Source: an uncultured virus (IMG/VR IMGVR_UViG_3300021962_000002) (lineage: Duplodnaviria; Heunggongvirae; Uroviricota; Caudoviricetes). From it: DNA of 64,000 nucleotides. Location of the stretch: the IMG/VR virus record IMGVR_UViG_3300021962_000002, one strand, 5' to 3'. The position numbers and the translations under genes were made by a program. Under the pieces are notes generated by a model. The model ran no database searches and was not told where the DNA came from. It was given only the letters and a program-made list of their open reading frames with translations. Below, one piece after another: positions 387 to 54,074 of the stretch (its first letter is position 1; every line of letters begins with the position of its first letter).

Positions 387-1634
387 ATGAGTATTCCAAT
401 GCAGCGGTATCCAATCTTTGATGTTGCGTCTCCTTTGCGTGACTTAGTGTTCTACGAGATTGTTGATTACAACATTAAATCCAATAGGGACATGGAGTAT
501 GGAACACCACACCATAACATCCAGTCTTACCCTAATCATCAACTGGTTTACATTACGCCAAATGACAAAGAAGGAAAAACTTATCGGTTTTACTACGCAG
601 CTAATAGGGAGAATCAAGATGATTACAACTGGCAGATTTCAAACGGTGAACAATTGGTTCGCACGTATCTTATTTCACGTGAACTATATTACGAAAGAAG
701 CGAAGCTGAAGCAGCTGCATCATCCATCATTAATGGTGAGTTTACCTATCCAGTAATTGGAACTCCAGATGTTCGATTTGCTAAATACGGATTTGCTGAT
801 GATACCGTAAATGATGCACCTCAAGAACTTGCCAGTCGTTACATCTTGATTCAAAGAAGATTTCTTGAACCAGTTACAAATGAAGTAATTTGGAGTGATG
901 ATTTCAAAAAGTATATTAAGGTTACAAAAGAATTAATACCTGCAACATTAAATCCTACTCCACCTGCGCAAGAAGCTGGTAAAAGTGTCGAAATTAAAAA
1001 AGGCAATAGATTTCACGATATCCGTATTACTAGTCAATTAATTTTATCAGGAGGCGTATTTGCCACTTATGAAAATCCATCTATACCAGATTACAGGGGG
1101 TATACTTTCCCAGATAAATTAGAATCCATTAATCTTGTTTATGTGTGGGCGTGGGCAGCTTCTACTAGTGCTGTTGAATCCTATTCAGAGGATTTTTATT
1201 TTGATTACAAAATAATTAGTCCAAGACCAGGTCCTTACTCTGCTACTATTCGTAGATTTATAACAGGTGATCCACAGTCAATAAAAACACTGTATCCAAT
1301 TCAATATGCGCCATCACCAGTCAAGGAAACTATGGCAGTAGTTTATGCTTGGTATAAAGCTAGCCTAGAGGGTAATGCTACTAATGCAGTTGCAGATGAG
1401 CAACAACTACCAGCAAGTATACATGGCCCAATTACCGTTACAGAAAATGGACAAGGCGTTGGAACTCAACCATCGAGAACAAGGCGATATACAAGCAGCT
1501 TCTCCGCAACTACTGGATTTACTGATTTTATGGCTTTGAGCACTATGACAATAGGATACGAAGTGCGTGAACTTCCATTAAATCTATATGAAGTTAAAGT
1601 AATACAAATCGACAAATCTAATCTATATGGGTAA
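387..1634 (+). CDS. Putative virion/tail structural protein
   Basis: 415 aa, aromatic and beta-strand-rich, in late gene block; no motif recognised. Confidence 0.45.
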   Translation: MSIPMQRYPIFDVASPLRDLVFYEIVDYNIKSNRDMEYGTPHHNIQSYPNHQLVYITPNDKEGKTYRFYYAANRENQDDYNWQISNGEQLVRTYLISRELYYERSEAEAAASSIINGEFTYPVIGTPDVRFAKYGFADDTVNDAPQELASRYILIQRRFLEPVTNEVIWSDDFKKYIKVTKELIPATLNPTPPAQEAGKSVEIKKGNRFHDIRITSQLILSGGVFATYENPSIPDYRGYTFPDKLESINLVYVWAWAASTSAVESYSEDFYFDYKIISPRPGPYSATIRRFITGDPQSIKTLYPIQYAPSPVKETMAVVYAWYKASLEGNATNAVADEQQLPASIHGPITVTENGQGVGTQPSRTRRYTSSFSATTGFTDFMALSTMTIGYEVRELPLNLYEVKVIQIDKSNLYG

Positions 1635-3279
1635 TAAAACATTGCGAGACTACGAAAGTAGCGAGCCTGAAAATCTTTACAATTCTGTCAATTCAGATAA
1701 AAATTTAGTAAATGGTGCAAATCCGCAACCTATTGTAAATTCATCCAATTCAGAACGCTCCAGCAAAAGAAATGGAGATGGAAGACCTAATATTAATCCT
1801 GCTTTACGGCATGATGCTTTCAAGCTTGATCATGGAACAAATGGAGCACGCATAACACGTGGATGGCTTGAGTGGTATGTCACAAGAATTGTATTTGAAA
1901 AAAAATACATTTACAATTCATCTGGACTTCTTGTTGATGAAGTAAACTCATTGGCATCACAAGAACCAATTGATGGTGTTAAAATAATGCAAATGGCAGA
2001 AGCCGCAGCTTATGAGGATAGTGATTGGTTGCAACTTAATTGGTATGGAGATGTGTGGGCGGTTGTAGAGCTATCTGAAGAAACTGGTGAACCAGTATCT
2101 CTTAATATTGAAGGCCCTGCCGAGCCAGTAATGAGGCCAATTCCAAGACTTGACTCTGATTTGTCACGTGAAGCTTCAGACAGTGGCGACTTGGGGACAT
2201 GTGGATATGCAGTTAAAATTGGAACAGTGCCTGAAAATGACAAGGTAGTTCAAATGCATATTGGAAATCTTTATTGGTTTGTATCATTTATTCCAGAAGC
2301 TACTGCAATTCCAAGTAGTGACGGAAGCGATGATAGTTCTGATGGTTCTGATGATTCGGATGGGGGAGGCTCTGACTCAGATGAATCAGGAGATTCAGAT
2401 GGATCTGATGACACAGAATGTTGTCCAATAATTTCAGTTCAATCAGTTGCTATGGTTAATAGTGATTGTTTTGCTAGTAATTTACCTCAAACAGTATTGG
2501 TATTAGTTACAGCTACAATAACTGGCAATCCATGTAATTGTCGCAATGCTTTTGTAGAGATTTCTTTTGCGGGACAAAAACAATATTTTAATTTAGGATT
2601 TGCAGGTCAAGGAACAGTAACTGGGTTTTTCCAGATTATGGGAACGCCATGCACTACTTATGGTGGAACTGTATGTTGGCGCACTTCAGTAAATACTGCT
2701 GGTGACAATTGTAGTTCAAGAGTTTGTTGTGAAGACTATACCGTAAGAACACCATCAATTTGCGATAGTGGATGTAGTTCAGATGAGTCTGATTCAGATG
2801 GTTCAGACGACTCTGGGAGTGATGGATCTGATGATTCAGGAAGTGATGGTTCTGATGAATCAGGAAGTGATGGCTCTGATGATAAAACCTGTATTGTTCC
2901 AAGTTTATATTCAACAACTGGATACACCGCATTGCGTTGCGTTGAATCTCCAGAAGTCTGGTTTGTGGATATTATGCGAGGAATTCAAATGGATGTAAGA
3001 CAAGTTCAAATTCCTATTGATCCTCAATTTATAGAAGTATGTGCAGCAAATTCATTAGTTGTAACTACAGTTCAGGCAGACAAGCCAGTTGTTATTGGAG
3101 CTAGAATAATTAAAAACGATAAAGGTTTTTCTTGTGTTGAATTAACAAAACCTTGGTTATGTGGTAAAATATCTGTAGTTGTTACATTGCAAGGTATCAG
3201 AAGTGGATTCCGCAATCGTTTTCCTGAAAAAACTCTTATGGAATATGGCAAAAACAAACATTTCTGGGAGCAATTATAA
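1627..3279 (+). CDS. Putative tail spike/fibre-type protein with two Asp-Ser-Gly repeat tracts, a 12-Cys domain and a C-terminal chaperone-like domain
   Basis: SDGSDDSG repeats flank a Cys-rich ~120-aa domain. The C-terminus (KTCIVP..ESPEVWFVD..IPIDPQFIE..GIRSGF) resembles C-terminal intramolecular-chaperone-like domains of phage tail proteins. Confidence 0.55.
   Translation: MGNKTLRDYESSEPENLYNSVNSDKNLVNGANPQPIVNSSNSERSSKRNGDGRPNINPALRHDAFKLDHGTNGARITRGWLEWYVTRIVFEKKYIYNSSGLLVDEVNSLASQEPIDGVKIMQMAEAAAYEDSDWLQLNWYGDVWAVVELSEETGEPVSLNIEGPAEPVMRPIPRLDSDLSREASDSGDLGTCGYAVKIGTVPENDKVVQMHIGNLYWFVSFIPEATAIPSSDGSDDSSDGSDDSDGGGSDSDESGDSDGSDDTECCPIISVQSVAMVNSDCFASNLPQTVLVLVTATITGNPCNCRNAFVEISFAGQKQYFNLGFAGQGTVTGFFQIMGTPCTTYGGTVCWRTSVNTAGDNCSSRVCCEDYTVRTPSICDSGCSSDESDSDGSDDSGSDGSDDSGSDGSDESGSDGSDDKTCIVPSLYSTTGYTALRCVESPEVWFVDIMRGIQMDVRQVQIPIDPQFIEVCAANSLVVTTVQADKPVVIGARIIKNDKGFSCVELTKPWLCGKISVVVTLQGIRSGFRNRFPEKTLMEYGKNKHFWEQL
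2314..2412 (+). repeat. Low-complexity Ser/Asp/Gly coding repeat tract 1
   Basis: Encodes SSDGSDDSSDGSDDSDGGGSDSDESGDSDGSDD. Confidence 0.9.
2776..2883 (+). repeat. Ser/Asp/Gly coding repeat tract 2 (24-bp unit, SDGSD[D/E]SG, about 4 copies)
   Basis: Tandem units like agtgatggNtctgatgaWtcagga. Confidence 0.9.
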
Positions 3280-3281
3280 TT

Positions 3282-4688
3282 ATGATTTTAGATGAGATAT
3301 TTGAATGGGTTGTTGTAATATCCTTAAAAGAACAAGTTGAGCGAAGAGATCGAGCACTTAGTGTTTTACGCTCCGCTAATTTATCTGATCGAGTTCAAGT
3401 CTTTGATGCAATAGTAGGAAAAAATGAAGTGCGCCCTAAATGGTGGCCTAATGGCGCTGGAGCATGGGGATGTTATCGTAGTCATGTAGAAGTATTAATT
3501 GCAGCAAAACAAGCAGGAGTGAGTTCAGTATTGATTCTTGAAGACGATGTTGTGTGGGCTAATGGAGCAGCTGAAGCAATTAAAAAATTAATGTCTGATA
3601 TTCCCAGTGATTGGGCGCAATTATATTTAGGTGGGCAACATAGATGGGAACCTCAACGCATTGCAGATAAAAAAAGCGTATTAATTGGAAGATCAGTCCA
3701 TAGAACACATGCATACGCAGTAAGAGGTGATGCAATTGATGAAGTGTTAAAGCATTTAGATCGAATAGAAGACTTTGCTGAATCAAAACAAAAAGGTGAA
3801 AAACGCCATATAGACCATCACCTTGAAGATGCACATCGCAAAAAAAAATGGTCTGTTTACTCTCCATTACGATGGATTGCTGGACAAGGCGAAGCGTATT
3901 CAACAATTCTAGGAAGACACAAAGAAGAACAATGGTGGCAACCACGTAAGATTTTAGAAGCAGAAAGGAAATTGATTATTATGAAAGAAAGAAAAACAAG
4001 TGATGTACCGTTTGTAATTTTTGGAACACCAAGAAGTGGATCAACATTATTAATTCGAATGCTGAATAAAATGGATGGCGTTGCTTGTAATGGGGAACGA
4101 CGAGATTTTCTATGGTGTCTAAAGGGGTTGTATGATCATCGTTCAGCATTAGAATCAAGATCTCCTCATTCATTTGAAGACTTGGATACTGTAGTTGAGC
4201 GTAATGAGTTTCCATCACATCATAATAAAAGCACAAAAGACGGTTGGTCAACTGCATGTGAAAACACGCTACGTGCATGGTGCGGTGGAGAAGGGGAATC
4301 TGGCAGTAAAGCATGGGGAATGAAAGAAGTCCATGTAGGTAAAATTGGTGGTCAATATTTATTCCAAATATGCGACTGGCTTCAAGGAATGGTTTCTGGT
4401 ATTAAGTTTATTTTTTTGACAAGAGAACTTGAGGCGACTTTGATATCAATGATGAAGAACCCTAAATGGTGGATTCCTTCTTATGCTTCATGTGCAGCGG
4501 GATGTGAACGAGCAATCAAAACACAAAAATCAGCTATGAGCGATTATGCGGCACTCTATCCTTCTTCTTGTATTGAACTCGATTACAAAGATCTACTCAA
4601 TTTTGAAACATTGCAGAAAAAATTAAAAGAAGTTAATATTGAGTTAAGCGAAGAAGCATGGAAACAAACGATAAGTGTTAAAATTTAA
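3282..4688 (+). CDS. Glycosyltransferase family 25 - sulfotransferase fusion
   Basis: N-half has GT25 motifs (ISL..ERR, FDAI, GCYRSH, LILEDD, LYLG, THAYAV). C-half has the PAPS-binding loop GTPRSGSTLL plus WGMKE and FIFLTR. Confidence 0.85.
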   Translation: MILDEIFEWVVVISLKEQVERRDRALSVLRSANLSDRVQVFDAIVGKNEVRPKWWPNGAGAWGCYRSHVEVLIAAKQAGVSSVLILEDDVVWANGAAEAIKKLMSDIPSDWAQLYLGGQHRWEPQRIADKKSVLIGRSVHRTHAYAVRGDAIDEVLKHLDRIEDFAESKQKGEKRHIDHHLEDAHRKKKWSVYSPLRWIAGQGEAYSTILGRHKEEQWWQPRKILEAERKLIIMKERKTSDVPFVIFGTPRSGSTLLIRMLNKMDGVACNGERRDFLWCLKGLYDHRSALESRSPHSFEDLDTVVERNEFPSHHNKSTKDGWSTACENTLRAWCGGEGESGSKAWGMKEVHVGKIGGQYLFQICDWLQGMVSGIKFIFLTRELEATLISMMKNPKWWIPSYASCAAGCERAIKTQKSAMSDYAALYPSSCIELDYKDLLNFETLQKKLKEVNIELSEEAWKQTISVKI

Positions 4689-4699
4689 TTAATTGGTCT

Positions 4700-5473
4700 A
4701 TGAAAGAAACATCACTTGATGAGCCATTGCGAGTTGTTATGAGCGGCGATTTAATGGCATTACCAATGTTGTCTACGTGCGTAGCTTCAATCGTAAGGCA
4801 TACATTACGTAAGCGTGTAGAAGTTGATATTTATACTCGCGCAATTACTTTACCTGAAGACATTGTGACAGAAAGATTAACTGTGCATTTTCGACGGCCT
4901 CCGCAATCAGTAGAGTGTAGTCAAGGTCGATTGCCCAGTGAAATGTTTGACAGATTATGGGTAATGGAGGAAAGGCATGAATGGTCGCGTTGTTTGGTTT
5001 GGGATTGGGATATGATTGCTGTTGGTAACATTGATGAAATGTATAATGTCGAAATGGATGATCAGTATGGCGCGTATGTCGTATCACCCAAAAGGACAAC
5101 ATATATACAGAATAATTGGACAAAACGTGGAGCGTGGGCCAAAGAAATGCCAGGAGCAGAACAAGTGTATTTTAGGTTTGGTGGATTAATGAATTTAGAC
5201 AAATGCCGCCAAGATCAAATTATGAAACAAATGCTAGAATGGTCTTATAATGGCAGCACTGAACAGGCATTGCTTGCATGTGTAATGATGGGAAATTATA
5301 AACCATTAGAAACTAAATGGAATGTATTGCCAAGTATTGAACAAATACCTCAGGATGCCAGAGTATTGCATTTCTTTGGAACAAGGAAGCCATGGACACA
5401 CCCTGATGTAAAAGGCATAGAATCATGGGTCAAAGAACAAACAAGTTGGAATGAATTGCGGAAAGGTATTTAA
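4700..5473 (+). CDS. Glycosyltransferase family 8-like protein
   Basis: DxD motif (WDWDM), EQALL, KWNV and C-terminal HFFGTRKPW typical of GT8. Confidence 0.8.
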   Translation: MKETSLDEPLRVVMSGDLMALPMLSTCVASIVRHTLRKRVEVDIYTRAITLPEDIVTERLTVHFRRPPQSVECSQGRLPSEMFDRLWVMEERHEWSRCLVWDWDMIAVGNIDEMYNVEMDDQYGAYVVSPKRTTYIQNNWTKRGAWAKEMPGAEQVYFRFGGLMNLDKCRQDQIMKQMLEWSYNGSTEQALLACVMMGNYKPLETKWNVLPSIEQIPQDARVLHFFGTRKPWTHPDVKGIESWVKEQTSWNELRKGI

Positions 5474-5520
5474 TTCTGTTGTTATTTATTTATTTTAGTT
5501 GGCTAAACCAGACATTTTAA

Positions 5521-5548
5521 TTGCAAGAATCCTAGAGATGTGTAACTT
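5521..5548 (+). promoter_or_regulatory. Putative leaderless sigma70-type promoter
   Basis: TTGCAA-N16-TAACTT-N6-ATG(5555); palindrome at 5494-5507 just upstream. Confidence 0.55.
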
Positions 5549-5554
5549 CAACGC

Positions 5555-6223
5555 ATGTCTCAAATCTTAACATTTGCTGAAGCACAGCAACGATTCTCCA
5601 ATTTGGTGACAACCGAAGTTGATATTGGCGATGCTATCCAAGAAGTAATAGACCGCGCCTATGAAATGGGACGCTGGAGAGGCATGATGGAAGAGATTGA
5701 ATGCACCACTAACCAATATGTTACAATTAGAGAAGATACTGAAAAAGATGAAGTTTATCTTGATTTTGATCCTGCTCAATTTGATGGAGCTATTGGCTTC
5801 CGTCAAGGAGGTAGAGGATACGGAATCAAAACATTAGTATCCTTGTATCAAGAAGATACCAGTGTTGGTGATTTATCTTTTATTGATATTGGGGATGTGA
5901 TTGTCAACGATGTCACTTATCGTCGTTACAGAGTGCCTCGTTACTGGAGTAGCCCTATAGTTGAGCTATACGCGCTTCTGAAGAAGGTCAGCAAGTCTCC
6001 ACTGGCCGATAATGACATTCTACCCATCAAAAGCATTGGAGCGCTTAAATCAGGCATTCTGGCCGTTGCTTACGAGAATGTAAACGACATGGAAAGAGCA
6101 GATGCTCACTGGCAGAAATTCATGCAACTCATGGAGAGAGCACAGAAACAATATAACGGAGGTCGCAAGATTTCTATTCGATTTAACGACAACATCAGAA
6201 AACGTCCAACCCAATTTAAATAA
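5555..6223 (+). CDS. Putative virion structural protein (head-tail adaptor-like)
   Basis: 222 aa, helical N- and C-termini, precedes the ejection-protein-like trio; positional inference. Confidence 0.4.
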   Translation: MSQILTFAEAQQRFSNLVTTEVDIGDAIQEVIDRAYEMGRWRGMMEEIECTTNQYVTIREDTEKDEVYLDFDPAQFDGAIGFRQGGRGYGIKTLVSLYQEDTSVGDLSFIDIGDVIVNDVTYRRYRVPRYWSSPIVELYALLKKVSKSPLADNDILPIKSIGALKSGILAVAYENVNDMERADAHWQKFMQLMERAQKQYNGGRKISIRFNDNIRKRPTQFK

Positions 6224-7479
6224 TGTCACTACAACAAGATCCCTCAAAAAGTTTTGGCTCTACATCTTATTTTCAAAATAAAGATGAACAACGCCGTGTG
6301 GTAAATGACATGCGTAGAGAGCAACGTAACAAGCGTATTGCTCAACAAGGCCTTACCCGTAATATTAAAAGAGCAATCAGAAAAGGTGAGAATCCTGGAG
6401 CTTTTATTAATGCCGCCAAAGAAATGAGTCTTGATCCATTAGGTGGTGGTGGGTTTGGTCCTGAAGCTGCACAAAGAGATGCTGCGCTAAGAGCTAAAGC
6501 TGCCGCTGGATTTGAGGAGGTTAGTCAGCAGAGACAAAAGTCTGACAAAGCATTTGGTAATAAAAAAGAAAATATCAAAAAAGAAAGTTCAACATCAACT
6601 GTTGGTTCTGTAGGTTCATCTTCAGCAAGTAGTTCTGACACTACTGAAGCAAGTAATATTGAAGGAGTTGATGCTGGTGTAGATAGCAATGTAAGCAACA
6701 AACCTAAAGAGCCAGAATGGTTTACTGGTGATGTTAAGAAAGACACTACATTTAGAGGGGTGGATCTTACTAATCCTAGATTTATTGGAAAAAGCAGAGA
6801 AGAAGCTCGTCAAATGGTTATGTCTGATAAAGCTAGCAAAGCTTTGAGACAGTTTGATGTGGATGGAAAAGCTCTTGCACAAAAAGAAAAAGATGCAGCC
6901 TTTGCGCAAGAAAAACAAAACATTGAAGCACAAGGCAACATTGCAAGAGAGCAGGTTAGCCAGATGGATATAGACAAAAAAACACAAGCTGCTCTTGATC
7001 CAACAAACATAGCAAAACAAAAAGTTGACTTTGCGGCTTCTCAAGCTAGAAGCGAAGAATACAAAAAAGCTTTAGCGAGATTTGAATCTATAACCCCAGC
7101 ATTAGACAAGGGTGTAGAAAGCGTGGGATTATTTCAAGATTATACAGATGCATCCATGGCTGAAATCAAAGCACAGTCTAATATTATGCAAAGATTAAAT
7201 ACTTCAAATATAATGCGTGATGCTCAAATTCAAAGAGATGCTCAACTTCAAGCAGATCAGCAAATTAGAGAAGATCAACAAAGGTCTATAGACTTAAATG
7301 CTGGAATACAAATAAATGAAAATACTCGCGTAGCAAACATGATAACATCAGCTAATCGAGATTTATTCAATCGTTCCACAAAAGGTAAGATTTACAATGC
7401 TGGAAGCGCAATGGCTGATGCAGTAGCTAAAGCAACTTCATCTATTTTCAATAACACAAATCCATACTACATAAAATAA
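6223..7479 (+). CDS. Putative internal virion/ejection protein
   Basis: 418 aa, Ala/Gln/Lys-rich and helical, no Cys; first of three genes of increasing size. Confidence 0.45.
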   Translation: MSLQQDPSKSFGSTSYFQNKDEQRRVVNDMRREQRNKRIAQQGLTRNIKRAIRKGENPGAFINAAKEMSLDPLGGGGFGPEAAQRDAALRAKAAAGFEEVSQQRQKSDKAFGNKKENIKKESSTSTVGSVGSSSASSSDTTEASNIEGVDAGVDSNVSNKPKEPEWFTGDVKKDTTFRGVDLTNPRFIGKSREEARQMVMSDKASKALRQFDVDGKALAQKEKDAAFAQEKQNIEAQGNIAREQVSQMDIDKKTQAALDPTNIAKQKVDFAASQARSEEYKKALARFESITPALDKGVESVGLFQDYTDASMAEIKAQSNIMQRLNTSNIMRDAQIQRDAQLQADQQIREDQQRSIDLNAGIQINENTRVANMITSANRDLFNRSTKGKIYNAGSAMADAVAKATSSIFNNTNPYYIK

Positions 7480-8965: not shown

Positions 8966-11900
8966 ATGACCGATCCATTCAACGAAAGCAAAAAAGGTTT
9001 TATCACTTTTGAGAAAAACAGCGAGTATTCCTATCTTAATCAACCAATTGCTAAACCAGTTGAGGCGACTAAAGTCGAAGAAAAAGAAGAAGAGAAGTTT
9101 ACTCCAGAAACCTATGGTGATTATGGCATCAAGATTCCTGATCCATTAAATCCATTTAAGATGTTTGATTCAAACGAGTGGGCAAACAATCCTGATTCGC
9201 GTGAAGAGGCAGCACTTAAAGTTACGGAGAATTACTACAATGAGCTTATGAAGCCAGAGGCTACTGTTCCTGCTATTGTTGATGGACAACTTAAGCAAGT
9301 GCAAGCATCTGAGGCTGGACGCTTAACAAAGGCTGGATTACACGCATACGACAACAGTTTGCAATTGATTGGAATGGCGCAACAAAGGGAGGATGGAGGA
9401 TTTCGTCTTAATCCAATGACAGGTAAAAAAGATTTTGCATTTGGAAGCAAAAACCTTACTCCATATGATCCAGAAAAAGACAAGGATAGTCAGAAACGTC
9501 AAGCTGATAAAAATGGATATGGAGCAAGTGATTATGAATTAAGCAATAAAGAAATTTTTGGTCGTGATCATGTATCTAGTGTTATTGATGCATACGCCCA
9601 AAAGAATGATTTAGATATTGAAGACTTAAAGCCAGAGAGTATTACACCAGAACGTTTTGTTCAGATTCGTGATTCACTGCGTGAAGGCGATCCTTCTGGT
9701 GGCGCTTTTGAGGTAACTAAAAAGATTAATGGAAGTAACGATGCTGTCCTTGATGATGAAGCACGTAAAGAGTATGCAGATGCGCTTGGTTACTATACAA
9801 AAGAAAAGCAACTTGGTGACAAGCTTGTTGATATGTATAATGGACAGCCTGTTATTAACTATGAAAAACTTACTGATCTTAATAAGTTTGAAGAAGCAGT
9901 TAATTCCTTGCAAATGCCAGCAGTTGACAAGGCTAGGTTTTTAACAACATTCAAACGTAACTTTGAACAAGATGCTGCAAGGATTCTTATGGAGCAACAA
10001 CTAGGCTCTAGTGCTCCAGAATTAGTATTTGCAGCAACTCCAGTAGGGGCAGCTGCAACATATGTTGGCTTAATGGATGGTGAAAACGAGATTCAAAAAT
10101 GGGCGCGTGAAGGAAATAAAACTGCTTATGAATTCCTTAAAGAGAATCCATTCTTCTCTCAAGATACTCCGTATGTTGTTTCCGCACTAAGACGTGTAGG
10201 GCTAAGAACTGTTAATTCATTTCAAAATACTGCCCTTGGTGCTAGCGCTCTTGGTCTTGGATTTGTTGGTGCAGTAGCTGAAAAAGTTGGAGCCGAAGGT
10301 GTATCAGATTTGGCAAGAGAAGCAGGAATGTCCATGATTGAAGCTGGCGCATATTCTGGTAATGTTCTTACCGCTGGAGCTAAATATGATGGTGGAATAA
10401 ATGAAGGATTTCTAGGTATTACCGATGAAGATCTTTACTCTGTTGTTGGTCAGGTTCTTGAAACTGTTGCAACTGGAGGAGCTTCATTGCTAGTCAAGGG
10501 TGCAATTAAAGGAGGGACAACTTCTCTAGCTAAAATGACATTAAAGGAGTCGCTTGAATTTGGAGCGGCTAAAGCCTCGCAATCAATAGCTAAAAGACAA
10601 ACAGCTGGATTTGCGACTAAAGCAGCAATCAAAGCTAAGGAAGCAGCTATATCATTGTGGACTAATTCTTCAAAAGTTAAACTAGCTGAAAATATCTTGG
10701 CAACATCATTGCAAGGATCATTTGGTTCAGCTGGACAAGCTTTGTCTTCTTCTTATGGAGAAGCTATTGATAAAGGAATGAGCAGAGAAGACGCTCTTGC
10801 TGAAGCTACTGGCAAAGCTACTGCTAATGGACTTGCTACGTTTGCAGCAATGTCGCTAATGAACATGGTTGCTCCAGGTGTTGAAAAGATTTTAATGTCA
10901 CCTGAGACTCTTGTTGGTGCTGGTCAAGCAATTAAGAATACATTGGCTAGCCGTGCAGCACGTAAAAGCATTTCAGCTGGCTTAACTGATGTCATTGGAG
11001 ATAAGGCTGTCAGAACAGCCCTTTCTAAAGGCGTAGCTGACGCTGTAAGAGGTCAGGTGTCGAAAGAAGGTATTGGTGGGTTTATTGGCGCTGTGGTTCT
11101 TAACGGGGCTGCTGAAGGCCTTGAAGAGATGATTGACACTGCTCTTGCAACTACACTTGACGCCTACATGAATAACTCCCCAGAAGCAAGGAAAGAATTC
11201 GAGTCTGGTGGATTGTGGCTTGACGTTATCAAGTCTGGTATTATGGGCGCAATGATGGGTAGTGGAGTGAATGCTGTATCGCTAACATCCAAAGATAAAA
11301 AGGAAATGGCAATAAAATCCAAAGATAGCATGAATGACTATCTTCAGAAAAAACTTCCAATGCTTTCTCCTAGTCTACAATCAAAAGTATTTGTTTCTCA
11401 AAAAGATAAGTCTCAACCGCAAATGGCGCAGACGATTCAACAGATATTGCAAACTGGTGATCTAAATCAAAAGGTAGAGGCTCTTGCCAATCTTGGCAAT
11501 ATTGCTGCCGTTAATGCATTTACTCCCCAGACAACAGTTACGCCAACAGGAGCTATTGTCCCTACTAGTAAATCTGGAGTTACTTCTACAGCAACCACTC
11601 CATCAACTACTTTACAAACAACAATAAATCCAACAGATCCAGGGTCTACGCCTACCGCCGACGAAACACCCCAGATGCCCGATTTTGGTAACATCGAGAA
11701 CGAATCCTTTTATGATGCAGTCGAATCTCTCGAACTGTCTGGTAGTGATGCGAATGGCGAGAACTGGCAGGCCCACGGTACAGATCAAGAATCTTCCGTG
11801 CTCTCCATCTTGAAAGATGGGCCAAAAACTTCCAACGGGTCTACCTTTTATACTGGCCCAATTACTGGGTCGTCTGTCGGTGGCGTAAACACAAAGATTA

Positions 11901-14900
11901 GTGCAAAGTATCTTATTGTCGGTAAAAAGGGAACCAAGATTAGAACCAAAGATGAGATCGCTGGTGTTGTGGTGAACCCACAACCGAGTGAGTCCAAAGC
12001 TGCGTATGAGCGGCGTCTTTCTGATATTCGCGCAAAACTTGAGCCGCTCGGTCATGCAGTTTTTACCCCACGCGATTACGCAAACTATGTTTCAACCAAT
12101 GAATCTTTACCCGCACCCGCTGCGCCCGCTCAAGCCCCCAAACTTGATCTTGCAAATCAGCCTTCACCTAATCTACCGCCAAAAGCAACTACCAACGCTC
12201 CTCCTGCACCATCTCGCAAGGACTATGCCAGCCGCGACGAATACAACCAAGCAGCGGATGAATGGTTCGACGCTTATGCAAAAACGCACAACGAAGATGG
12301 GTCTCCGATTCAACCTACGATATTAGACGAGACTGCAAAAAAAGCCCTCGCATTCTTGGGAGATAAAACCTACGACGATGCCATAGACGCGGTTGGCACG
12401 GGCATCGGGTCAGACCTAGGAGCTGGTTTAACCCTACTGATTAACGATGGATGGGTGTGGGACGACACTCAAAATAAGATGGTCGATCCTAAAGGGCGGG
12501 GAGAAACCCCTTTCGAAGCACGAATCAGAATACAAAATACTCAAGCCACACCCGCTGCGCCAACCAAAACCAGTAATCAACCAACTGTTACGCAAACATC
12601 ATTTAAGTTGTCTAATAAATCTGGTGTAACTGTTGAAGTCAAAACTCTAGTTGAAGATGAAAAAAAATTAGCTGGCTACGCCTATGAAGAAGCTCATGAC
12701 AAATCTATTTCGGGAGACAAAATTGAGCCAACTAAAACAGAGGATGTAACTTCAAAAGGAAAAACATACAAGATTACTACTTATTCTATTGATGGTAAAC
12801 CAGCTGACTTGCATAGCATTGAGGTAGATAATGATGGTAATCCAGTGATCGCTGATTATACTGGAGAAACTACAACAAAATTCTATAATAAAGCAGAACT
12901 CGTAAAACTACTTTCTTTAAGTAAATTTGCTCAATCTGTCATCAAGGATGACAATGATTTCAAATCTGAAGCAAAAGATGTTGCGCCAAAAGAAAAGGTT
13001 GAAATTCAAGCTAAAAAACCTGAAAAGAAACCAGATTTACAACCTGAAGAAAAACAAGAAAAGAAAAAAGAAGCGCCAAAATCAGAAGCTCCTAAACCTT
13101 TACCTGTTAAAAAAAGCGATGAAGTAACTGAATCTGAAATTGATGGTGAAGATAAATTACCAACAAGACATAAAGGGACTATTAAAAAGTTCATCAAGGT
13201 TCTCAATAAACTTGGAATCAAAGTTTATGTTCGTGAAAACAATACGGAATTAAATAAGTTTTTAACTGAAAATAATGCTCAGGCAGTTGAAGATAATGCT
13301 ATGGCGGCTACAATTATTAATGGCAAGCCAGCTATTGTAATTAATGCAGAGCAAGTAGGTAAGTTGCAAGACTTGCTCACTGGTATGAAGCACGAAGTAT
13401 TTCACACTATTGAAATAGCTTTTAGAGAAACACCAGAAGGTAAAAGACTTTATGATTTAATAAACAAAAAGAAACTCTTGCAAGACAAGAAACTTGTTGA
13501 GTTTATGCAGAGAGAATACTCAAGCAAGTTTGCAGAACTTGATGAGACAAATGCTTTCTATGAAGTAATGAGAGCATTTATCGCTGGTAAACTTCATGGA
13601 GAAACATTTACCTACAAGCCATTCTTGGAATACCTCAAAGCATTCATTAATCATGTAAGAAAATTAGTGAAGGGCGACAAAGAGCTTACTAATTATGTTG
13701 ATAAACTTTCACAGTATTACGAGAATGCAGTTAAAGATGCTGATAAAGAATTAGGATTAAGCGTTGCTTCTACTGGCGTCTTCAAAAACCTCATGTCTTC
13801 AATTGCAAATAAAGCTAAAGATTTGACTAAATCAAAAGCAAAAGAAGGTAAAGCAATTCAAGCAACAACTGCTAATGAAAGCGATATTGACGATCTTGTT
13901 AATGATTTGCTTATTGAAATTAATAATGCTTATGAAGACAATGCCAATCCTGATGACATATTTAACTATGTTGTAAAAACCATTGATAATAGATTGATTG
14001 GAACTGATGTAGGATTAGACTCTTATAGTAAAACTAAAGTTTTTGAAATGGTCTTAGGTGCTTTGAATACTGAAAGCTCTACACCTGAGTTGAAGGGTTT
14101 ATTTGAAAACAAAATTGCTGATCTTGGGAAAGAAAAGTCTCCCGTTATTGCACTTCCCGCAAGTCAGGTTGAAAACATGGAGCCAGTCAAAAAGAGGCTA
14201 GACCTTGCTGGATGGACTGGTATTAGACGCTTTGTTTCTGGAGTAAGAGAGGATGGATTAACTCGAAACCAGCCTGATGTCATGTCTCTTAATGATGACA
14301 CAAAACTTCCATTTACAAATGCATTTATTGAGTTTGCGATGGACCCTGTTACTCAAAAGTATCCTGATCATGATTTGAAGTTTGGTGATGCAATGGAAAG
14401 CATTAATGCTGCTGGTGTTGTTGATGGTTATTTGATTTATAGTCATAGCATTGAAACATTTAATCCAGAAACCAATACAGGTTATATTACTCATCGTTTC
14501 ATGAAGAGTCCTGCATTGAAGCCTAATGGAAAAATAAGTCCTTTCTTCTCTGTTAAACAATCTCAATATGCGCGTGAGTTTTACGACATGGTTACTGACA
14601 GCAACGTCATTGCAACTATGTTCACGCCAACTAATGAGGGAGTGATGATCACTTCACCAGAAGGCCTTATTAAGCTTGTATTTGAGTCTCTTACCTCAAA
14701 CAGAACTAAAGCAGAGAATGGCAAAACTCCAGAGGCATTCCTTAAACAAGGAGACAAGGATATTAAATTTGCTGATATATTTGAATTTGTAGCGAAAGAC
14801 AATAAAGATGGAACAAGCCCCTTCTACTACAAAGATGGGAAGATTGTGGTCAATACTGCAAAGCTTGCAAGAAACTTTAGCTTCATCAAGGAAGAGGCAT

Positions 14901-17900
14901 TAAGCACTAAAGAGCAAAAGACTAGCGTTGCGTTGATGGTTGCTTCTACTGTTCGCGCAGCTATTGAAGAGGAGATTCTTCACTTTGCAACCATTGGTGT
15001 TTTTGCTGGAGACAACAATCCCAAAACTGGCGTTAATAAACTAGTTGAGTTTTATGATGAACTAGAAAAACTTGGTTACTTCAATGACATGATTGATCAA
15101 ATCAGGGAGATGCAAGGCATTGATAATGCTGGTGCGTCTCTTACTAATGAAGAAAAGATTGTTATTGCTGCTGAGGTAATGTCATTCACTCATCAACGTG
15201 CAACTAATGGCGCTACATATGGAGATGAATATCAACGCCTTTATGATGGCATGTATGCCAGAGGTGAGCAAGGAGGCAATGCTCTTGCTACAGCGCGTCA
15301 ATATGGACAGACATTAAACAATATCCTTCAGGCTCGCGCAGCTACTTCTTTCATGTCTCCTAGGATGCAGGAAATGCTTGAGAAGCTGAACAAAGCCAAG
15401 GTTGAACTCGGCGTAAACCAGAGACTTAATAATTCTGATCAACTTGCAGCAAACTACCTTAGCGAGCAATATCAACTCAATAGAGGTAATATGCAGAAGT
15501 CTATTGATGAAGCGTTCATGAATGATTCTTTTGCGGTTGAGGAATTTCGTGCTGAACTCAAAGAGATTAACATACCTATTCGCCAAGTTATCAATATTGA
15601 CTTTGAAAAAGGAACAATAGACATCAATCCTGATTTTGCTGATTACTACAGAGAGAAATATGGAATTGATAAATATGATTCAATTCTGTCTTACTTTAGC
15701 CGACTAAATGAGCAGAGCGTAGCTAAAGACTTAGCCAAATCAGTTAAGTCTGCTCGTCAAGTAATGGATGCTATGCGTATGTCTCTTGACGTTAATAACG
15801 AACTAGACAATCTAGCTACGCAATTGGTTAATGGCAACTTCGATCAAGTTATTAATTATCTTGAGGGCTACAGTCAGCAAGAAGGAAAGATTGTATTTGA
15901 TAGCTTAATTCAGTTGGCACAGTCTTTTGAGTTTAACGACAGTATCAGCTTGGCTACTGAAAAAGATAAAGCAATGATCAAGAACTTTTATGACGCTGCT
16001 ACACGATCCGACATGGCATATGTTGGATACCAGCCTACAACTGGCCCTGCTATTTCTCCATGGCGAACAAATGCTATAGCTGCGGAAAATGCTAAAAGAA
16101 GGTTTCGTCACAAATCAGGCTTTATTGATCTTCTTGATCAATTAGTTCCTAGAGGAGGAGTTGATTATTACAGTGATTCAGATACAGATTACATCAACAA
16201 GGCAATTGCTCAATTGGTTCCTCAAGACATCATCATGCAAGGTCATGACGCTGTAATCAATGAGTTGTATAAGGTGTTTAAGAATGAAAACATTTTACCA
16301 AATATTAAAAACGCACGTAGTGCAAATATTAATAAGAAAAAACAAACTCAAGTTATCTCATTGCTTACGAACAAAAACACTAGTGTTGAGAACGGTGGCG
16401 TATTACCTTCTTATGCTCCATTTATTGCATCTGTAAATAGCTACAATGATCTAGTTGTAAACTTTGATGAAATCATCCTCAACAAAAACCTGACAAGGGT
16501 TAATGAGTTTGGTAGAGAATTTGTTTCTCTTGATAATTTGCTTCCAGAGTCAAGCAATGGTGAGCGCAGATTAGCGTTTGGTGTTGATTTTGAGCCGAAC
16601 ATTTTTGGTTACTCAAATGAGTATCCATCAAATGTAATAATTGATAGACTATATGTTGGTAATATGAGGAAAAAGGGTGAGAATGAGGATGTTATTGAGG
16701 CTACTGCTCAATGGCAACGTTCTTTCCTTGGTCGATATACAAGCAGTGATAGAGAGCGCTATCCTGAAAAACCAATGACTGTTGAGTCTAATGCTGCAAA
16801 AGCTGGAGAAGAAGACTACAATAGGTATATGATGGGGCGTATTGCAGGTGCTCCATTGCTTATTACGAAATTAGATGACAATGGTAATGAGTTCCTTAGT
16901 GATGTTTCATATGATGATTATTACAAAACAATGGGCTTTCAACCTGTTGTAAACAATGTCAGGATTTTTGATGGTTATGCAGATCCAGCTTTGTTGAATG
17001 AAAACCTCTTGAAGTTCTCAATTAGTGACAGGAGTATTGAATTGACTAAAAACTTTAGTGTCAAAATGCGCCAATTAAATAGTGACGCAGCAATTAAAAC
17101 ATTTGCTAGGGATGCAGGTAGTTTGGATATTGCAATCAATAAGATTACAGAAATGTTGTTTGATGGCAATGAAGCTGGAATCAGAATTGATGACTGGTTT
17201 AATATCATCTCAAGTTTGATTGGCTACAATAAAAAAACTGGTGAAGCAACTGTTGTTCGAAGCATTGACGGACGTGAAACATTTGCATCTAAGTTTGCTG
17301 ATCAAATGATTTTCAGAATGTTTGGCAAAGAAGACAATCGTTCTAAGAATCTACAAGAATACATAGAGCTTCTCAATAAGGCATATAAAGCATTAAGACC
17401 TGGGGAATTTAAGGATGCTGGTAAACTTAACGCAGAAGAAAAAAGAGTAATCATTGACGAGCTTCCTATTTTCTTGGAATTAGTTGATGCAGCTAATAGA
17501 GACATTGGATTAGGAAGAAAAGCCTATAGCCGATTTAGAAGTCGTTTCTTAACAGGAACAATCAATGCTGATATTAGACTAATTCAGGAACAGGGCGCTG
17601 AAGGTATTCGCGCAAATGAAGAACTGGTTAAATCTATTGCTGATAGTTATTATGACATTCAAGCAATGTTTGATGTTGAATGGCATTCAAACTATTTAAC
17701 TAATGGTGGCCCTATTGGTTATCAGGGACTTACGGCATTGCAGTTGATGGATGAGTTTGCTCGCATTCCTAGTTCTGCCACTAATGAGTTCTTTGTCAAA
17801 GGGAAAATGCCTACTAAGGTTGGATACCTTCTTGATTACTACAACAATATGCAAGAAGCATATGGTAGTGTCAGAAAGAAAGATGCTGATGGCAAGTCTG

Positions 17901-26221: not shown

Positions 26222-26509
26222 TCATGAATTAAAGAAATTTGTTTTTGGATTTGTAAACCAGCCTTCGTCTTTAGCGGCTGAACTATTTTCATGAACCCAT
26301 CTATGACACTCTTCACACAAAGGAACTACTACACAACAAAACTCTCTTGTTGTGCGCTTGAATGGATGGTGTGGCTCAAAGTCTCCACCAAAATGCTTCC
26401 AGTTATTGCCACGCATACGGCAACGAGCACAGGCAGCAGGAATATACACTTCAAGTATGCGCTTATACTGCTCAAGCCATTCTTTCCTTTTGTCTGATAT
26501 TCTTTTCAT
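26222..26509 (-). CDS. Small HNH endonuclease-like protein
   Basis: CARC..EPHH..VPLCEECHRWVH. Confidence 0.7.
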   Translation of the reverse strand: MKRISDKRKEWLEQYKRILEVYIPAACARCRMRGNNWKHFGGDFEPHHPFKRTTREFCCVVVPLCEECHRWVHENSSAAKDEGWFTNPKTNFFNS

Positions 26510-33792: not shown

Positions 33793-34344
33793 ATGGAGCC
33801 ATCTGGTGTATCAATGAATCCACCTAGTAGGGTGGAGTGGAAAGGGTCAATTATTTATGTCGGAGACGCTAGACAAGCGCTTCGTGAACATAAGATTACT
33901 TTTGAAGAGCGTGATGAGTTTCTTGGAGCTATCTATGCAGCTAATCCAGCATTGGTCAGTAATCCCAATGCTAAGTCTGTGTATCGTATGCATCTTGGAG
34001 ACTTCCAACATTACCTACAGGCACTAAAGTCAAGATGGTCAAATGGAGTTCCATTAGTCAGTAAAGAAGAAGCATTACGCAGAACAAATATTTGTCAAAG
34101 TTGTCCAGCAAAGTCACAAGTTAATGGTTGTTATGGATGTAGTGGTTTATCAAAGCTCCTAATGCACATACCTGAAAAGTTCATGGAGAACAATGCAGGT
34201 TGCGCAGTGTGTAAATGTTATCTTAACAACAAGGTTTGGATGAGTGAAGAGGTGTTATCTGCTGATTCTAGAGATCTTGAATATCCTCCGAATTGCTGGA
34301 TGAACGAAGTTTTTCCTCCGCAGTCACCTGTTGGTGACACTTAA
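33793..34344 (+). CDS. Cys-rich putative metal-binding protein, inverted relative to neighbours
   Basis: RTNICQSCP..GCYGC..GCAVCKCYL..K..PPNCW. Confidence 0.65.
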   Translation: MEPSGVSMNPPSRVEWKGSIIYVGDARQALREHKITFEERDEFLGAIYAANPALVSNPNAKSVYRMHLGDFQHYLQALKSRWSNGVPLVSKEEALRRTNICQSCPAKSQVNGCYGCSGLSKLLMHIPEKFMENNAGCAVCKCYLNNKVWMSEEVLSADSRDLEYPPNCWMNEVFPPQSPVGDT

Positions 34345-34717
34345 TGCACAAAGCTCTGAATCCAGAAGCTTCGCAGAATAAGCGTTTAGCAAAACTAGGA
34401 AGGTCTTCAAAGTCTCTTAAGCTACCAGCTGGAATAATGTGATCAATTTGAATTTCTTTCGCAGGATGCACATCTTTACAGATAGCGCACTTGTAATGCT
34501 TTGCTGCTCTATTGGTCTTTTTATTCACCCTAGTGTCAACATAAGCTGCTTTTAGGCAATCAAACTTAGGTTGCCATCTGGAGCTAGCACTACGTAATGC
34601 GCTTCTAATAAACCCAAAGAACCTAGATTTTGTCCATGTCCCACTGTTGTAAGGACGATCTATATCTAGTTTTCTCTTTACTGGCTTTGCTTTTTTCTTA
34701 CTCATATTCTTTCTCAT
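34268..34717 (-). CDS. HNH endonuclease
   Basis: IRSALR..RW, YKCAIC, QIDHI, LFCE..ALCIKCH. Confidence 0.8.
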   Translation of the reverse strand: MRKNMSKKKAKPVKRKLDIDRPYNSGTWTKSRFFGFIRSALRSASSRWQPKFDCLKAAYVDTRVNKKTNRAAKHYKCAICKDVHPAKEIQIDHIIPAGSLRDFEDLPSFAKRLFCEASGFRALCIKCHQQVTAEEKLRSSSNSEDIQDL

Positions 34718-53919: not shown

Positions 53920-54074
53920 ATGTGTGTGTTGTTGGTATAGTCTGAGGGGCGGCGGGTGTCACCTGACTCCCCTACTCCGCAGTATCGACTACACAGATGG
54001 AACAGAACGTTTGTGAAAAAATTCTCGTAAAAAAAATTCTTGAGTGAAAATAAATGATGGGTTAATTAGACGCC

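Follow-up and report, generated by a model that had tools for sequence, protein, structure and literature searches.

A glycosyltransferase–sulfotransferase cassette behind a Ser/Asp-rich tail-fibre-type gene in an uncultured phage: a candidate system for a sulfated fibre

Introduction

What do a sulfotransferase and two glycosyltransferases of a phage modify when they are encoded directly behind a fibre gene with acidic Ser/Asp tracts? The question is raised by a locus in the DNA analysed here, a stretch of 64,000 nucleotides from an uncultured virus of the Caudoviricetes (IMG/VR IMGVR_UViG_3300021962_000002), hereafter called the window. To our knowledge, glycosylated phage particles have been documented so far for a few mycobacteriophages. 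Phage-encoded transferases glycosylate mycobacteriophage capsid and tail-tube proteins (Freeman et al. 2023, as cited in the accessible parts of PMC12619734 and PMC11256854), and what sulfotransferases do in phage genomes is described as unclear in the accessible part of PMC10580990. In the literature searched, which covers few subscription journals, we found no paper on sulfated phage virions or glycosylated Ser-rich tail fibres. An earlier note on this DNA had proposed that the phage builds a sulfated glycan on the tracts, in the manner of animal proteoglycans.

Results

Organization of the locus

As the earlier note described, three linked genes lie on the + strand in tight packing, at 1627-3279 (550 aa), 3282-4688 (468 aa) and 4700-5473 (257 aa). 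The fibre gene overlaps its upstream gene by 8 nt, and the following spacers are 2 nt (fibre to GT25-sulfotransferase) and 11 nt (GT25-sulfotransferase to GT8). The features of the locus are listed below.

387..1634, + strand: 415-aa protein of unknown fold, conserved immediately 5' of the fibre gene (phmmer)
1627..2310, + strand: N-terminal part of the fibre, aa 1-228, probable virion-attachment part (identity to L001)
2311..2415, + strand: acidic S/D/G tract 1, aa 229-263 (12 Ser, 13 Asp, 7 Gly, 1 Glu)
2419..2775, + strand: Cys-rich beta-sandwich of Ig/FN3-like fold that interrupts the stalk, aa 265-383 (pLDDT 73-92)
2776..2883, + strand: acidic S/D/G tract 2, aa 384-419 (14 Ser, 13 Asp, 7 Gly, 2 Glu)
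2884..3279, + strand: conserved C-terminal domain, aa 420-550, family hallmark and probable trimeric fibre tip (model, profile)
3282..4688, + strand: GT25 (about aa 5-219) fused to Sulfotransfer_3 (aa 243-440) (Pfam)
4700..5473, + strand: GT8 glycosyltransferase (Pfam)
5555..6223, + strand: 222-aa protein at the end of the cassette, conserved as its 3' flank (phmmer)

The cassette genes belong to one + strand run with structural-looking genes, in which no convincing internal promoter or terminator is found (18 promoter-like sites versus 29 expected). Both flanking proteins are conserved in position, and neither has a match in Pfam or PHROG. Thirteen viral loci have a homologue of the 415-aa protein immediately before the family gene (phmmer; E 6e-163 in L001, about 1e-12 in a marine clade), and 15 viral loci have a homologue of the 222-aa protein 3' of the cassette (phmmer; E 5e-14 to 4e-10). 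The protein encoded at 6223-7479, next but one after the cassette, also has a Ser/Thr-rich stretch.

Structure of the fibre protein

Over aa 1-224, the fibre is 56% identical to the closest relative, L001, and the remainder of the gene is not conserved with L001. The model has low confidence for aa 1-135 (pLDDT below 50). The two acidic tracts are composed purely of S/D/G/E, plus flanking P or T, and the DNA of tract 2 is a 24-nt tandem repeat of 3.6 copies. Such a composition is confined to this gene: all 39 of the 20-residue windows with at least 95% S/D/G/E, among 127,876 in six frames of the window, fall within it. The two SDGSDDSG tracts noticed earlier are thus present, but the emphasis then placed on Ser-Gly is misplaced, since the tracts contain 19 SD and 4 SG dipeptides. 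Low pLDDT (below 50 for aa 207-258 and for aa 386-418) marks the stalk tracts as disordered in the model and so probably exposed.

The domain inserted between the tracts aligns with Ig-like domains of GH2 enzymes and with fibronectin type III (VIA-align Z 9.2, rmsd 2.4, 98 aligned), a generic fold. Among eight homologues, only P0001, P0002 and P0005 have the insert.

The C-terminal domain has a pLDDT of about 94 in the model of the whole protein; modelled by itself, it reaches 83.6. Its profile collects 1121 sequence clusters, always with the domain at the C-terminus, and by this profile the 550-aa protein is a member of a large unnamed family. Its members vary at the N-terminus, share the conserved C-terminal domain and have a Ser-rich low-complexity stalk that is sometimes collagen-like. 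A Ser-rich tract directly before this domain is a hallmark of the family, 95 of the 141 top representatives having at least 35% Ser in the preceding 40 residues. Variants with collagen stalks also exist.

The position of the gene in relatives should be noted. In the window, the enzymes apart, no neighbour of the fibre gene belongs to a known family. In siphovirus-like relatives, the family gene follows the tape-measure gene (L004, L005, L011, L013, L033, L053 and L074); in L004, L011, L013, L033, L053 and L074 it comes after the tape-measure gene and a gene of roughly 263 aa. In L003 the family gene has a tail-tube gene on its upstream side, and in L017, L019, L020 and L027 it has LtfC-like domains there. 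The homotrimer model of the C-terminal domain scores 0.92 against 0.05 for the best control. In the calibration, made with two copies, not three, 20 of 30 proteins with a solved paired structure attain that mark, as does 1 of 23 with a single-chain structure; the runs share at least 93% of their contacts, and partner pLDDT is at least 89. The best fold match is the tailspike of cyanophage Pam1 (Z 7.2, rmsd 2.4, 69 aligned), and tips of fibres, tailspikes or pyocins make up eight of the 20 best rows; all these matches lie within the range of common beta-sandwich matches. Foldseek gives no match in the PDB at E <= 1e-3. The label 'tail-type', at first a guess, has gained moderate support from the position after the tape-measure gene in relatives, from the collagen-stalk variants and from the trimer model, and there is moderate evidence that the 550-aa protein is a tail-fibre-type virion protein.

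Structure of the two enzymes

The domains named earlier all score above the Pfam cut-offs. In the 468-aa protein, Glyco_transf_25 (PF01755) matches aa 11-124 (E 4.9e-10, 40 bits versus a cut-off of 24) and Sulfotransfer_3 (PF13469) matches aa 243-440 (E 2.8e-10, 41.3 bits versus 27). The 257-aa protein matches Glyco_transf_8 (PF01501; E 9.1e-20, 71.7 bits versus 24.3). The quoted motifs are likewise present: GTPRSGSTLL in the sulfotransferase, and D-W-D at the DxD position and HFFGTRKPW in the GT8 enzyme.

The GT25 half has stand-alone homologues of 223 aa in 15 viral loci (E about 1e-45, matching aa 5-219), and the whole fusion is kept in P0009-P0013, L012, L036 and L040. The sequence ILEDDVVW in the GT25 half aligns with the EDD of procollagen galactosyltransferase 1, in an overall match that is weak (E 0.02); we take this motif to be the metal-binding site (DXD-type) of GT-A enzymes. 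In the sulfotransferase half, R251-S252-G253-S254 and R381/S389 are invariant in seven sequences, down to 31% identity. These presumably form the 5'-phosphosulfate-binding loop and the 3'-phosphate-binding residues, respectively, of a PAPS-dependent sulfotransferase. Among PDB sequences, this half matches only protein-tyrosine sulfotransferase 1, in an alignment confined to the PAPS loop (E 0.14). The D-W-D and HFFGTRKPW motifs align with those of glycogenin, also in a weak match (E 0.006).

Neither enzyme has a membrane segment (maximum 19-residue hydropathy 1.39 and 1.45), and no flippase, polymerase or Gtr-type partner for the cassette is found by Pfam. Among the window ORFs scanned with Pfam, GT25 and GT8 are the only glycosyltransferases and no PAPS-synthesis domain occurs, which bears out the earlier remark that PAPS synthesis genes are absent from the window.

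Sugar-enzyme cassettes beside the fibre family

Of 26 related viral loci, 20 have a variable sugar-enzyme cassette directly 3' of the family gene. Matches to glycosyl-, sulfo- or methyltransferases or to UDP-galactopyranose mutase (E <= 1e-3) are found in 41 of 107 downstream ORFs, four of the 41 resting on matches below Pfam's own cut-off, and in none of 116 upstream control ORFs in 30 loci. The co-occurrence across related phages that the earlier note looked for therefore exists at the level of the family. These counts are not independent events, because many of the positive loci belong to one marine clade, and in L006, L009 and L014, which have enough downstream sequence, the fibre is present with no transferase match.

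At least seven different cassette types are distinguished. The enzyme that recurs is GT25, which phmmer finds in 17 of 34 loci. Sulfotransferases occur in three types, those of the window and L012, where GT25-sulfotransferase fusions (both Sulfotransfer_3) recur beside family members, and that of L034 (Sulfotransfer_2). Comparison of the window with L001 shows that the cassette has been exchanged as one unit with the stalk and the tip.

The specific pairing of these repeats with these enzymes does not hold up. In L036, a high-GC 90-kb phage contig, the GT25-sulfotransferase and GT8 pair (GT8 homologue E 2e-65, following the fusion gene) stands after a tape-measure gene, and no Ser-rich protein is encoded within 7 kb. 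In L040, the fusion is found with a methyltransferase, beside lectin-like genes instead. Furthermore, 14 Planctomycetota loci have a collagen-stalk family member with an adjacent GT2+methyltransferase gene, so that the enzymes do not track Ser tracts specifically. Enzymes kept without repeats, which the earlier note had named as evidence against itself, are thus seen in part.

It is highly improbable that the transferases modify phage DNA by base hypermodification, or that they are unselected cargo of a recombination hot spot. DNA-glycosylating phage transferases are known (accessible part of 10.1101/2023.12.21.572611), and the window also encodes ThyX, a DUF3310 protein (nucleotide kinase in PHROGs) and MazG-like proteins. 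However, the structural module houses the cassette, the replication genes are distant and on the opposite strand, and no 5-hydroxymethyl-pyrimidine-forming enzyme is detected by Pfam. A positional tie to one fibre family across very different phages is expected under neither reading, and the purifying selection and conserved motifs across the seven fusion sequences argue against junk.

Discussion

Candidate acceptors of the cassette

We tentatively propose that the fibre is the acceptor on which the enzymes assemble a short sulfated O-glycan. This fibre would be a trimer with an N-terminal attachment part, two disordered acidic tracts around the Ig-like domain as the stalk, and the conserved tip. 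The products of the two following genes of the same late operon would be soluble cytoplasmic enzymes that decorate the fibre before assembly. GT25, recurrent beside the family, may place the first sugar on stalk serines, GT8 may extend it, and the sulfotransferase fused to GT25 may sulfate it with host PAPS. The product would be a stiff, highly anionic, mucin-like stalk bearing a short sulfated O-glycan, which might serve in shielding, stiffening or host binding.

As the main alternative, the cassette could modify host LPS, capsule or exopolysaccharide, the receptor seen by the fibre tip, so as to block superinfection or keep progeny from sticking to debris; we consider this possible but rather doubtful. 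That the cassette adjoins the fibre gene would be explained by the exchange of tip specificity together with receptor modification, and the joint replacement of stalk, tip and cassette between the window and L001 fits such a receptor-linked module equally well. GT25, GT8, GT9 and GT11 are classic LPS/O-antigen families, and these together with UDP-galactopyranose mutase are typical LPS/O-antigen functions, which counts against the fibre as acceptor. Prophage ends are the classic place for serotype-conversion genes; the 14 Planctomycetota loci, in which the transferase is the last gene before ordinary bacterial genes, look like such ends. The enzyme pair that L036 retains without a Ser-rich neighbour points in the same direction. 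Transferases in the host-recognition clusters of phages are also interpreted in the field as modifying host O-chains, as published for the GT8-rich clusters of pelagimyophages (accessible part of PMC7029224). Against it, Pfam detects no integrase in the roughly 66.5-kb circular genome, the genes are inside a late structural run at 2 and 11 nt from their neighbours, and the enzymes have neither membrane-spanning segments nor a flippase, polymerase or Gtr-type partner. There is also little time to change the cell surface when genes are expressed late in a lytic cycle, and the little that a lytic phage gains from such late remodelling counts for the fibre as acceptor.

An acceptor on the virion other than the S/D/G tracts is unlikely. 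The candidates are the C-terminal domain or junction motif, the Ig-like insert and another virion protein, such as that encoded at 6223-7479 with its Ser/Thr-rich stretch; alternatively, the sulfotransferase would act on tyrosines. The Ser-rich tracts would then be flexible spacers only. Since collagen-stalk members also have transferases, the shared element is the C-terminal domain and not the Ser tract. The nearest solved sequences, procollagen galactosyltransferase 1, protein-tyrosine sulfotransferase 1 and glycogenin, are all protein-modifying enzymes, but these non-significant matches are too weak to bear weight. Moreover, Ser-rich tracts before the C-terminal domain are near-universal in the family and offer an obvious exposed, hydroxyl-rich acceptor, and the fusion of a sulfotransferase with a glycosyltransferase suggests consecutive steps on one glycan.

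Comparison with known systems

The animal proteoglycan system shares with the locus serines in an acidic context and sulfated sugars, but the analogy drawn earlier is an overreach. SD dominates over SG in the tracts, and no GT14 xylosyltransferase, linker enzyme or GAG-type chain polymerase is found by Pfam among the window ORFs scanned, so that only a short glycan is plausible. The set of two transferases and one sulfotransferase also suggests a short glycan.

The staphylococcal Ser-Asp repeat proteins are O-glycosylated by the adjacently encoded SdgA/SdgB, and the streptococcal serine-rich-repeat adhesins likewise by neighbouring enzymes, with GT8 enzymes extending the glycans. These systems resemble the locus in their long Ser-Asp or Ser-rich surface-fibre stalks encoded beside the enzymes. 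Their priming enzymes have the GT-B fold (GT4-type) and their proteins are exported by Sec or accessory Sec, whereas the window has the GT-A families GT25 and GT8, a protein that would be cytoplasmic until lysis, and sulfation in addition. Bacillus BclA and the mimivirus fibrils are collagen-like surface fibres with a trimeric C-terminal knob, glycosylated by dedicated enzymes. The likeness here is one of architecture: a trimeric C-terminal beta-sandwich knob, a repetitive stalk and, within the fibre family, collagen-stalk variants, though the stalk in the window is Ser/Asp-rich and not Gly-X-Y.

In temperate phages, the serotype-converting cassettes P22 gtrABC and Sf6 oac lie beside tailspike genes. 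They too adjoin a receptor-binding tail gene and are swapped with it. Integrases and membrane proteins (GtrA, GtrB, Gtr-type, Oac) are part of the Gtr/Oac systems, and the absence of both from this genome (integrase by Pfam, membrane-embedded enzymes by the hydropathy maxima of the two enzymes) lowers the probability that the locus belongs to them; modification of host glycans as such stays compatible. Che8 and related mycobacteriophages, as described in the accessible parts of PMC12619734 and PMC11256854, have phage-encoded soluble glycosyltransferases thought to coat their own structural proteins. The acceptors there are C-termini of capsid and tail-tube subunits, with the enzyme genes away from the acceptor genes; by this description, the window differs in its candidate acceptor, a low-complexity fibre stalk, in the adjacency of the genes, in the hypervariable cassette and in the sulfotransferase.

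Implications and the link to hosts

New here are the large unnamed fibre family, with its Ser-rich or collagen-like stalk, and the swappable sugar-enzyme cassette, sometimes with sulfation, directly 3' of the family gene in most loci with enough flank. Should the fibre prove to be the acceptor, uncultured aquatic phages would be added to those with glycosylated virions, this would be the first case of a sulfated phage particle, and the routine annotation of such transferases as host-LPS modifiers would be questioned.

In bacterial genomes, 38 of 41 loci of the family are in Planctomycetota, Verrucomicrobiota or Lentisphaerota, phyla known for binding and consuming sulfated algal polysaccharides. 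A further idea, which we regard as quite unlikely, is that the family marks phages of these hosts and that a sulfated, mucin-like bottlebrush stalk imitates their food, so that the host's own machinery for capturing polysaccharides draws the phage towards the cell. Under this idea, many glycosyltransferases of phage host-recognition clusters, read at present as modifiers of host O-antigen, would more broadly be fibre-decorating enzymes. By means of its hypervariable cassette, the phage would be able to change the bait.

Genome Context of the Three Genes

The phage genome is circularly permuted and measures about 66.5 kb; the window covers most of it, and L035, a locus from the same contig, joins the window end to its start. 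The genes for the putative tail fibre (here called the fibre), for the fusion of Glyco_transf_25 with Sulfotransfer_3 (GT25-ST), and for GT8 lie within a plus-strand structural run and are flanked by a 415-aa gene and a 222-aa gene. The spacers along these five genes are −8, 2, 11, and 81 nt, and promoter- or terminator-like sites are not in excess around the three genes. No integrase is found among the ORFs of the genome scanned with Pfam.

Features of the window
387–1634, 415-aa gene, upstream flank
1627–3279, plus strand, fibre gene (550 aa)
3282–4688, plus strand, GT25-ST gene
4700–5473, plus strand, GT8 gene
5555–6223, 222-aa gene, downstream flank
8966–25696, plus strand, 5576-aa ORF immediately after the structural run
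26–52 kb, minus strand, replication and nucleotide genes (primase/helicase, ERF, ThyX, RNA ligase, HNH endonucleases)
26222–26509, 34268–34717, and 37145–37576, minus strand, three HNH endonuclease-like genes scattered through the replication module
54075, terminase-like gene (weak PHROG match), followed by a plus-strand run of genes without known families

The 5576-aa ORF has no Pfam family in any third, and, judging by its length and location, it may encode a giant internal virion protein or ejection protein. The replication module that holds the three HNH-like genes also contains ThyX, a DUF3310 protein (labeled nucleotide kinase in PHROGs), and a MazG-like gene. GC skew is 0.21–0.24 at 2001–6000, partly because of the GAT/GGT/AGT-rich repeats, and 0.34 at 54001–56000, while most other 2-kb bins are at or below 0.1. 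DNA hypermodification by the transferases was rejected, since their genes lie in the structural module, far from the replication genes; DNA modification, or junk, is a very improbable account of them.

Architecture and Predicted Structure of the Putative Fibre

The fibre belongs to no Pfam or PHROG family, and PHROGs gives none for its neighbors either. In tblastn searches of GenBank phages, no match is found for the fibre, for the fibre of a marine clade of 55–61-kb phages (L016), or for the terminase; only the GT25 part is matched, at 25–28% identity, in unannotated huge-phage records. There is thus no cultured relative or annotation to lean on. Scans of viral contigs with single proteins found nothing, and 34 viral loci came from profile-based scans. 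The relatives are these loci and eight homologues in the protein collection.

These relatives have a common architecture, in which a variable N-terminus is followed by a Ser-rich low-complexity stretch, a GSDK(S/T)xAIVP-type junction motif, and a conserved C-terminal domain ~130 residues long (C-domain, residues 420–550 of the fibre). The composition of the Ser-rich stretch varies greatly (poly-S, SE, SD, SP, SA, and SSEQ). This junction motif, which can be written GS(D/E)K(S/T)xAIVP, precedes the C-domain at window positions ~2872–2900 and hardly varies in alignments A2 and A4. It becomes GMKMAIVP in collagen-type members, retaining the Lys and AIVP and losing the Ser, and may be where the protein is processed, cross-linked, or modified. 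The stalk is divided in two by a Cys-rich insert in the fibre and in two of the eight homologues.

Among 1.84 billion representatives, the C-domain profile matches 1121 clusters (E ≤ 1e-3), and the domain is always C-terminal. Among 150 listed of these clusters, 141 with at least 50 upstream residues were examined for stalk composition. The 40 residues preceding the C-domain contain at least 35% Ser in 95 of the 141, collagen-like Gly-X-Y runs occur in 2, and mostly shorter S/G/D tracts are found in 44. A long collagen-like stalk also replaces the Ser-rich one in L028, L031, L033, and many bacterial loci.

In the AlphaFold model of the fibre (mean pLDDT 63), disorder is predicted for the two acidic tracts and for the greater part of the N-terminus, and the Cys-rich insert is modeled as an Ig/FN3-like sandwich (Z 9.2, rmsd 2.4, 98 aligned residues), a generic fold. 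The C-domain is modeled with a pLDDT of ~94 in the full model and 83.6 when folded alone. It weakly resembles distal domains of tailspikes, tail fibres, and R-pyocin fibres (Z 7.2 to 5.3; 8 of the top 20 rows), and Foldseek with the C-domain alone gives no PDB match at E ≤ 1e-3. Neighbors in BFVD and the ESM Atlas, which serve as leads only, are collagen-repeat, 'tail fiber', and minor tail proteins. The homotrimer model of the C-domain scores 0.92 against 0.05 for the best control (contact agreement at least 93%, pLDDT at least 89), a mark attained by 20 of 30 proteins solved as pairs and 1 of 23 single chains in a calibration with two copies. Two further comparisons were discarded: Foldseek of the whole fibre model against the PDB returned multi-domain beta-sandwich proteins (integrins) at an uninformative TM of 0.15, and the whole-fibre profile against PDB sequences gave low-complexity artefacts only (e.g. 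mitoribosomal and splicing proteins).

In the siphovirus-like relatives L004, L011, L013, L033, L053, and L074, the gene order is tape-measure, a ~263-aa gene, and the fibre-family gene. On the combined strength of this position, the architecture, the weak fold leads, the trimer model, and the collagen variants, the protein is best read as a predicted trimeric tail fibre whose stalk is of low complexity and whose C-terminus forms the tip.

Acidic Tracts and Transferase Domains

The two acidic tracts described in the earlier note are present in the fibre as pure S/D/G/E (residues 229–263 and 384–419), and all 39 of the 20-residue S/D/G/E windows found in six frames of the 64-kb window fall in this gene. 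At the DNA level, a 24-nt tandem repeat encodes the second tract. The tracts are SD-rich, not SG-rich (19 SD and 4 SG dipeptides). The domain calls for the GT25 and Sulfotransfer_3 fusion and for GT8 also stand, all Pfam matches exceeding the curated cut-offs, and the enzyme motifs quoted with them are present. The RSGS of the putative PAPS loop and a downstream Arg/Ser pair are invariant in seven fusion homologues, the lowest identity being 31%. Neither GT25-ST nor GT8 has a membrane-like segment. The label of a phage 'proteoglycan' system should be dropped, since SD prevails over SG and Pfam shows neither a chain polymerase nor linker-region transferases in the window ORFs scanned. The Ser-Asp-repeat and serine-rich-repeat glycoproteins of Gram-positive cocci, which are alike in their working, are a better comparison, although the priming enzymes are unrelated.

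Co-occurrence of Sugar-Modifying Enzymes with the Fibre Family

The cassette, that is, the sugar-modifying enzyme genes directly downstream of a fibre-family gene, was surveyed in 26 viral loci over up to five plus-strand ORFs within 5 kb; L018 (a duplicate of L017) and six loci without a called gene or plus-strand downstream ORF were left out. Matches to a glycosyltransferase, sulfotransferase, sugar-type methyltransferase, or UDP-galactopyranose mutase in Pfam (E ≤ 1e-3) are found in 41 of 107 downstream ORFs and 20 of the 26 loci, sub-threshold matches alone supporting 4 of the 41. The co-occurrence of such tail genes with transferases, proposed as a check in the earlier note, therefore holds at the family level. 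In the upstream within-locus control (5.5 kb, 30 loci), 0 of 116 ORFs have such matches. Many of the positives come from one clade, so that the loci are not independent events and the independent cassette types number about seven. L006, L009, and L014 show no cassette match despite sufficient downstream sequence, while in L002, L004, and L033 the downstream sequence ends too soon.

Cassettes downstream of fibre-family genes
L001 (closest relative): GT32-like + methyltransferase, methyltransferase, GT11
L003: GT25; GT8 + GT32-like
L011, L013: GT9, methyltransferase, mannosyltransferase
L012: GT25-sulfotransferase fusion, methyltransferase
Marine 55–61-kb clade: GT25, accompanied by GT8, GT32-like enzyme, methyltransferase, second GT25, or mutase
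L034: Sulfotransfer_2

GT25 is the recurrent member (17 of 34 loci by phmmer), matching just the GT25 half of GT25-ST. Conserved genes bracket the cassette, a homologue of the 415-aa gene upstream in 13 loci and of the 222-aa gene downstream in 15. The mutase (E 4e-50) lies within the fibre-adjacent cassette of the marine-clade phages L015 (2908–3900) and L020 (12877–13869), implying a galactofuranose-containing glycan. The marine clade also has small upstream proteins with acidic Glu/Pro- or Asp/Pro-type repeats (L016:6466–6894, L025:4200–4607, L032:2571–3011), which give sub-threshold Trypan_PARP matches and are a second low-complexity protein of the virion module.

Between the window and L001, conservation is limited to the 415-aa protein (60% identity) and fibre residues 1–224 (56%); the stalk, the cassette, the genes after it, and the C-domain (23% in alignment A4) all differ. 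A mosaic boundary thus lies inside the fibre gene, and the stalk, tip, and cassette are exchanged as one unit. Such exchange is compatible with either role of the cassette, decoration of the fibre or receptor-linked modification of the host.

Possible Targets of the Enzymes

That the enzymes decorate the fibre is our tentative reading, held at slightly less than an even chance. In its favor, the cassette is embedded in a late operon, in a genome that looks lytic; the enzymes are soluble and have no flippase or polymerase partner; and the hallmark of the family is a disordered hydroxyl-rich stalk, which would be the acceptor. Virion glycosylation encoded by mycobacteriophages is a precedent (PMC12619734, PMC11256854).

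The earlier note had tied the enzymes to the repeats, and this holds for the company of tail genes and fails for the Ser repeats. A metagenome scan with the fusion profile found L036, a high-GC 90-kb contig, where a 41% identical GT25-ST gene and a GT8 homologue (E 2e-65) directly follow the tape-measure gene and neither a family member nor a Ser-rich protein occurs within 7 kb on either side of the pair. In L040, a GT25-ST fusion with a methyltransferase comes after three lectin-like (Laminin_G_3) genes. The enzyme pair thus stays with tail genes and not with Ser repeats. Action on another virion acceptor, or sulfation of tyrosine, is improbable. Modification of host glycans carries more weight, though we consider it rather unlikely: the enzymes are retained in L036 without a Ser-rich neighbor, their families are typical of LPS synthesis, and similar clusters have been read in this way in a published study (PMC7029224).

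Among species genomes, the C-domain is found in 41 loci, assigned by taxonomy to Planctomycetota (34), Verrucomicrobiota (3), Lentisphaerota (1), and elsewhere (3), a distribution that pattern-based retrieval may bias. Both Ser-rich and collagen stalks occur. Downstream sequence of at least 2.5 kb is available in 31 loci, and 18 of these have a transferase nearby. In 14 collagen-type loci of Planctomycetota (L052, L055, L057, L061, L063, L064, L067, L071, L073, L075, L078, L080, L081, L084), a GT2 and methyltransferase fusion gene is directly 3′, with gaps of −22 to +58 nt. Their collagen-like proteins are up to ~1300 aa long with the C-domain at the end (the locus edge truncates 2 of the 14 ORFs), and several copies of the pair occur per genome, for example four loci in one MAG. 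Beyond the fusion gene are ordinary bacterial genes (efflux pumps, kinases, and BREX components). A free-standing two-gene module would, if true, nearly prove the coupling of fibre and enzyme; it was dropped, since the conserved 662-aa and 265-aa genes upstream, mirroring the tape-measure and 261-aa pair of L053 and L074, suggest a prophage tail module. The loci look like prophage ends, and the pairs may belong to prophage tails or to tail-like particles that have been domesticated. Prophage ends are the classic site of serotype-conversion genes, and this position counts for host-glycan modification. In view of these collagen-stalk loci, the enzymes go with the fibre family rather than with Ser tracts, and their target may be the host surface.

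Novelty and Host Link

The literature searched, which included few subscription journals, yielded no account of sulfated phage particles or of glycosylated Ser-rich tail fibres. Sulfotransferases have been noted in marine phages, with their function called unclear (PMC10580990). According to another paper, members of the Planctomycetota-Verrucomicrobiota group use sulfated polysaccharides for growth and also produce exopolymers that are sulfated (PMC7356697). Because of the link to such hosts, the idea in the earlier note that the glycan could be a 'substrate mimic' is worth stating as a candidate bold case. The marine-clade arrangement of fibre and GT25 (with or without GT8) is also found in contigs binned with Verrucomicrobiota, L072 (an Opitutae MAG) and L077 (a Verrucomicrobiales MAG). 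The 40 stalk residues shown for the L077 fibre contain the whole stalk stretch printed for the viral locus L021, a match that may serve as a lead to the host of the uncultured 55–61-kb phage clade.
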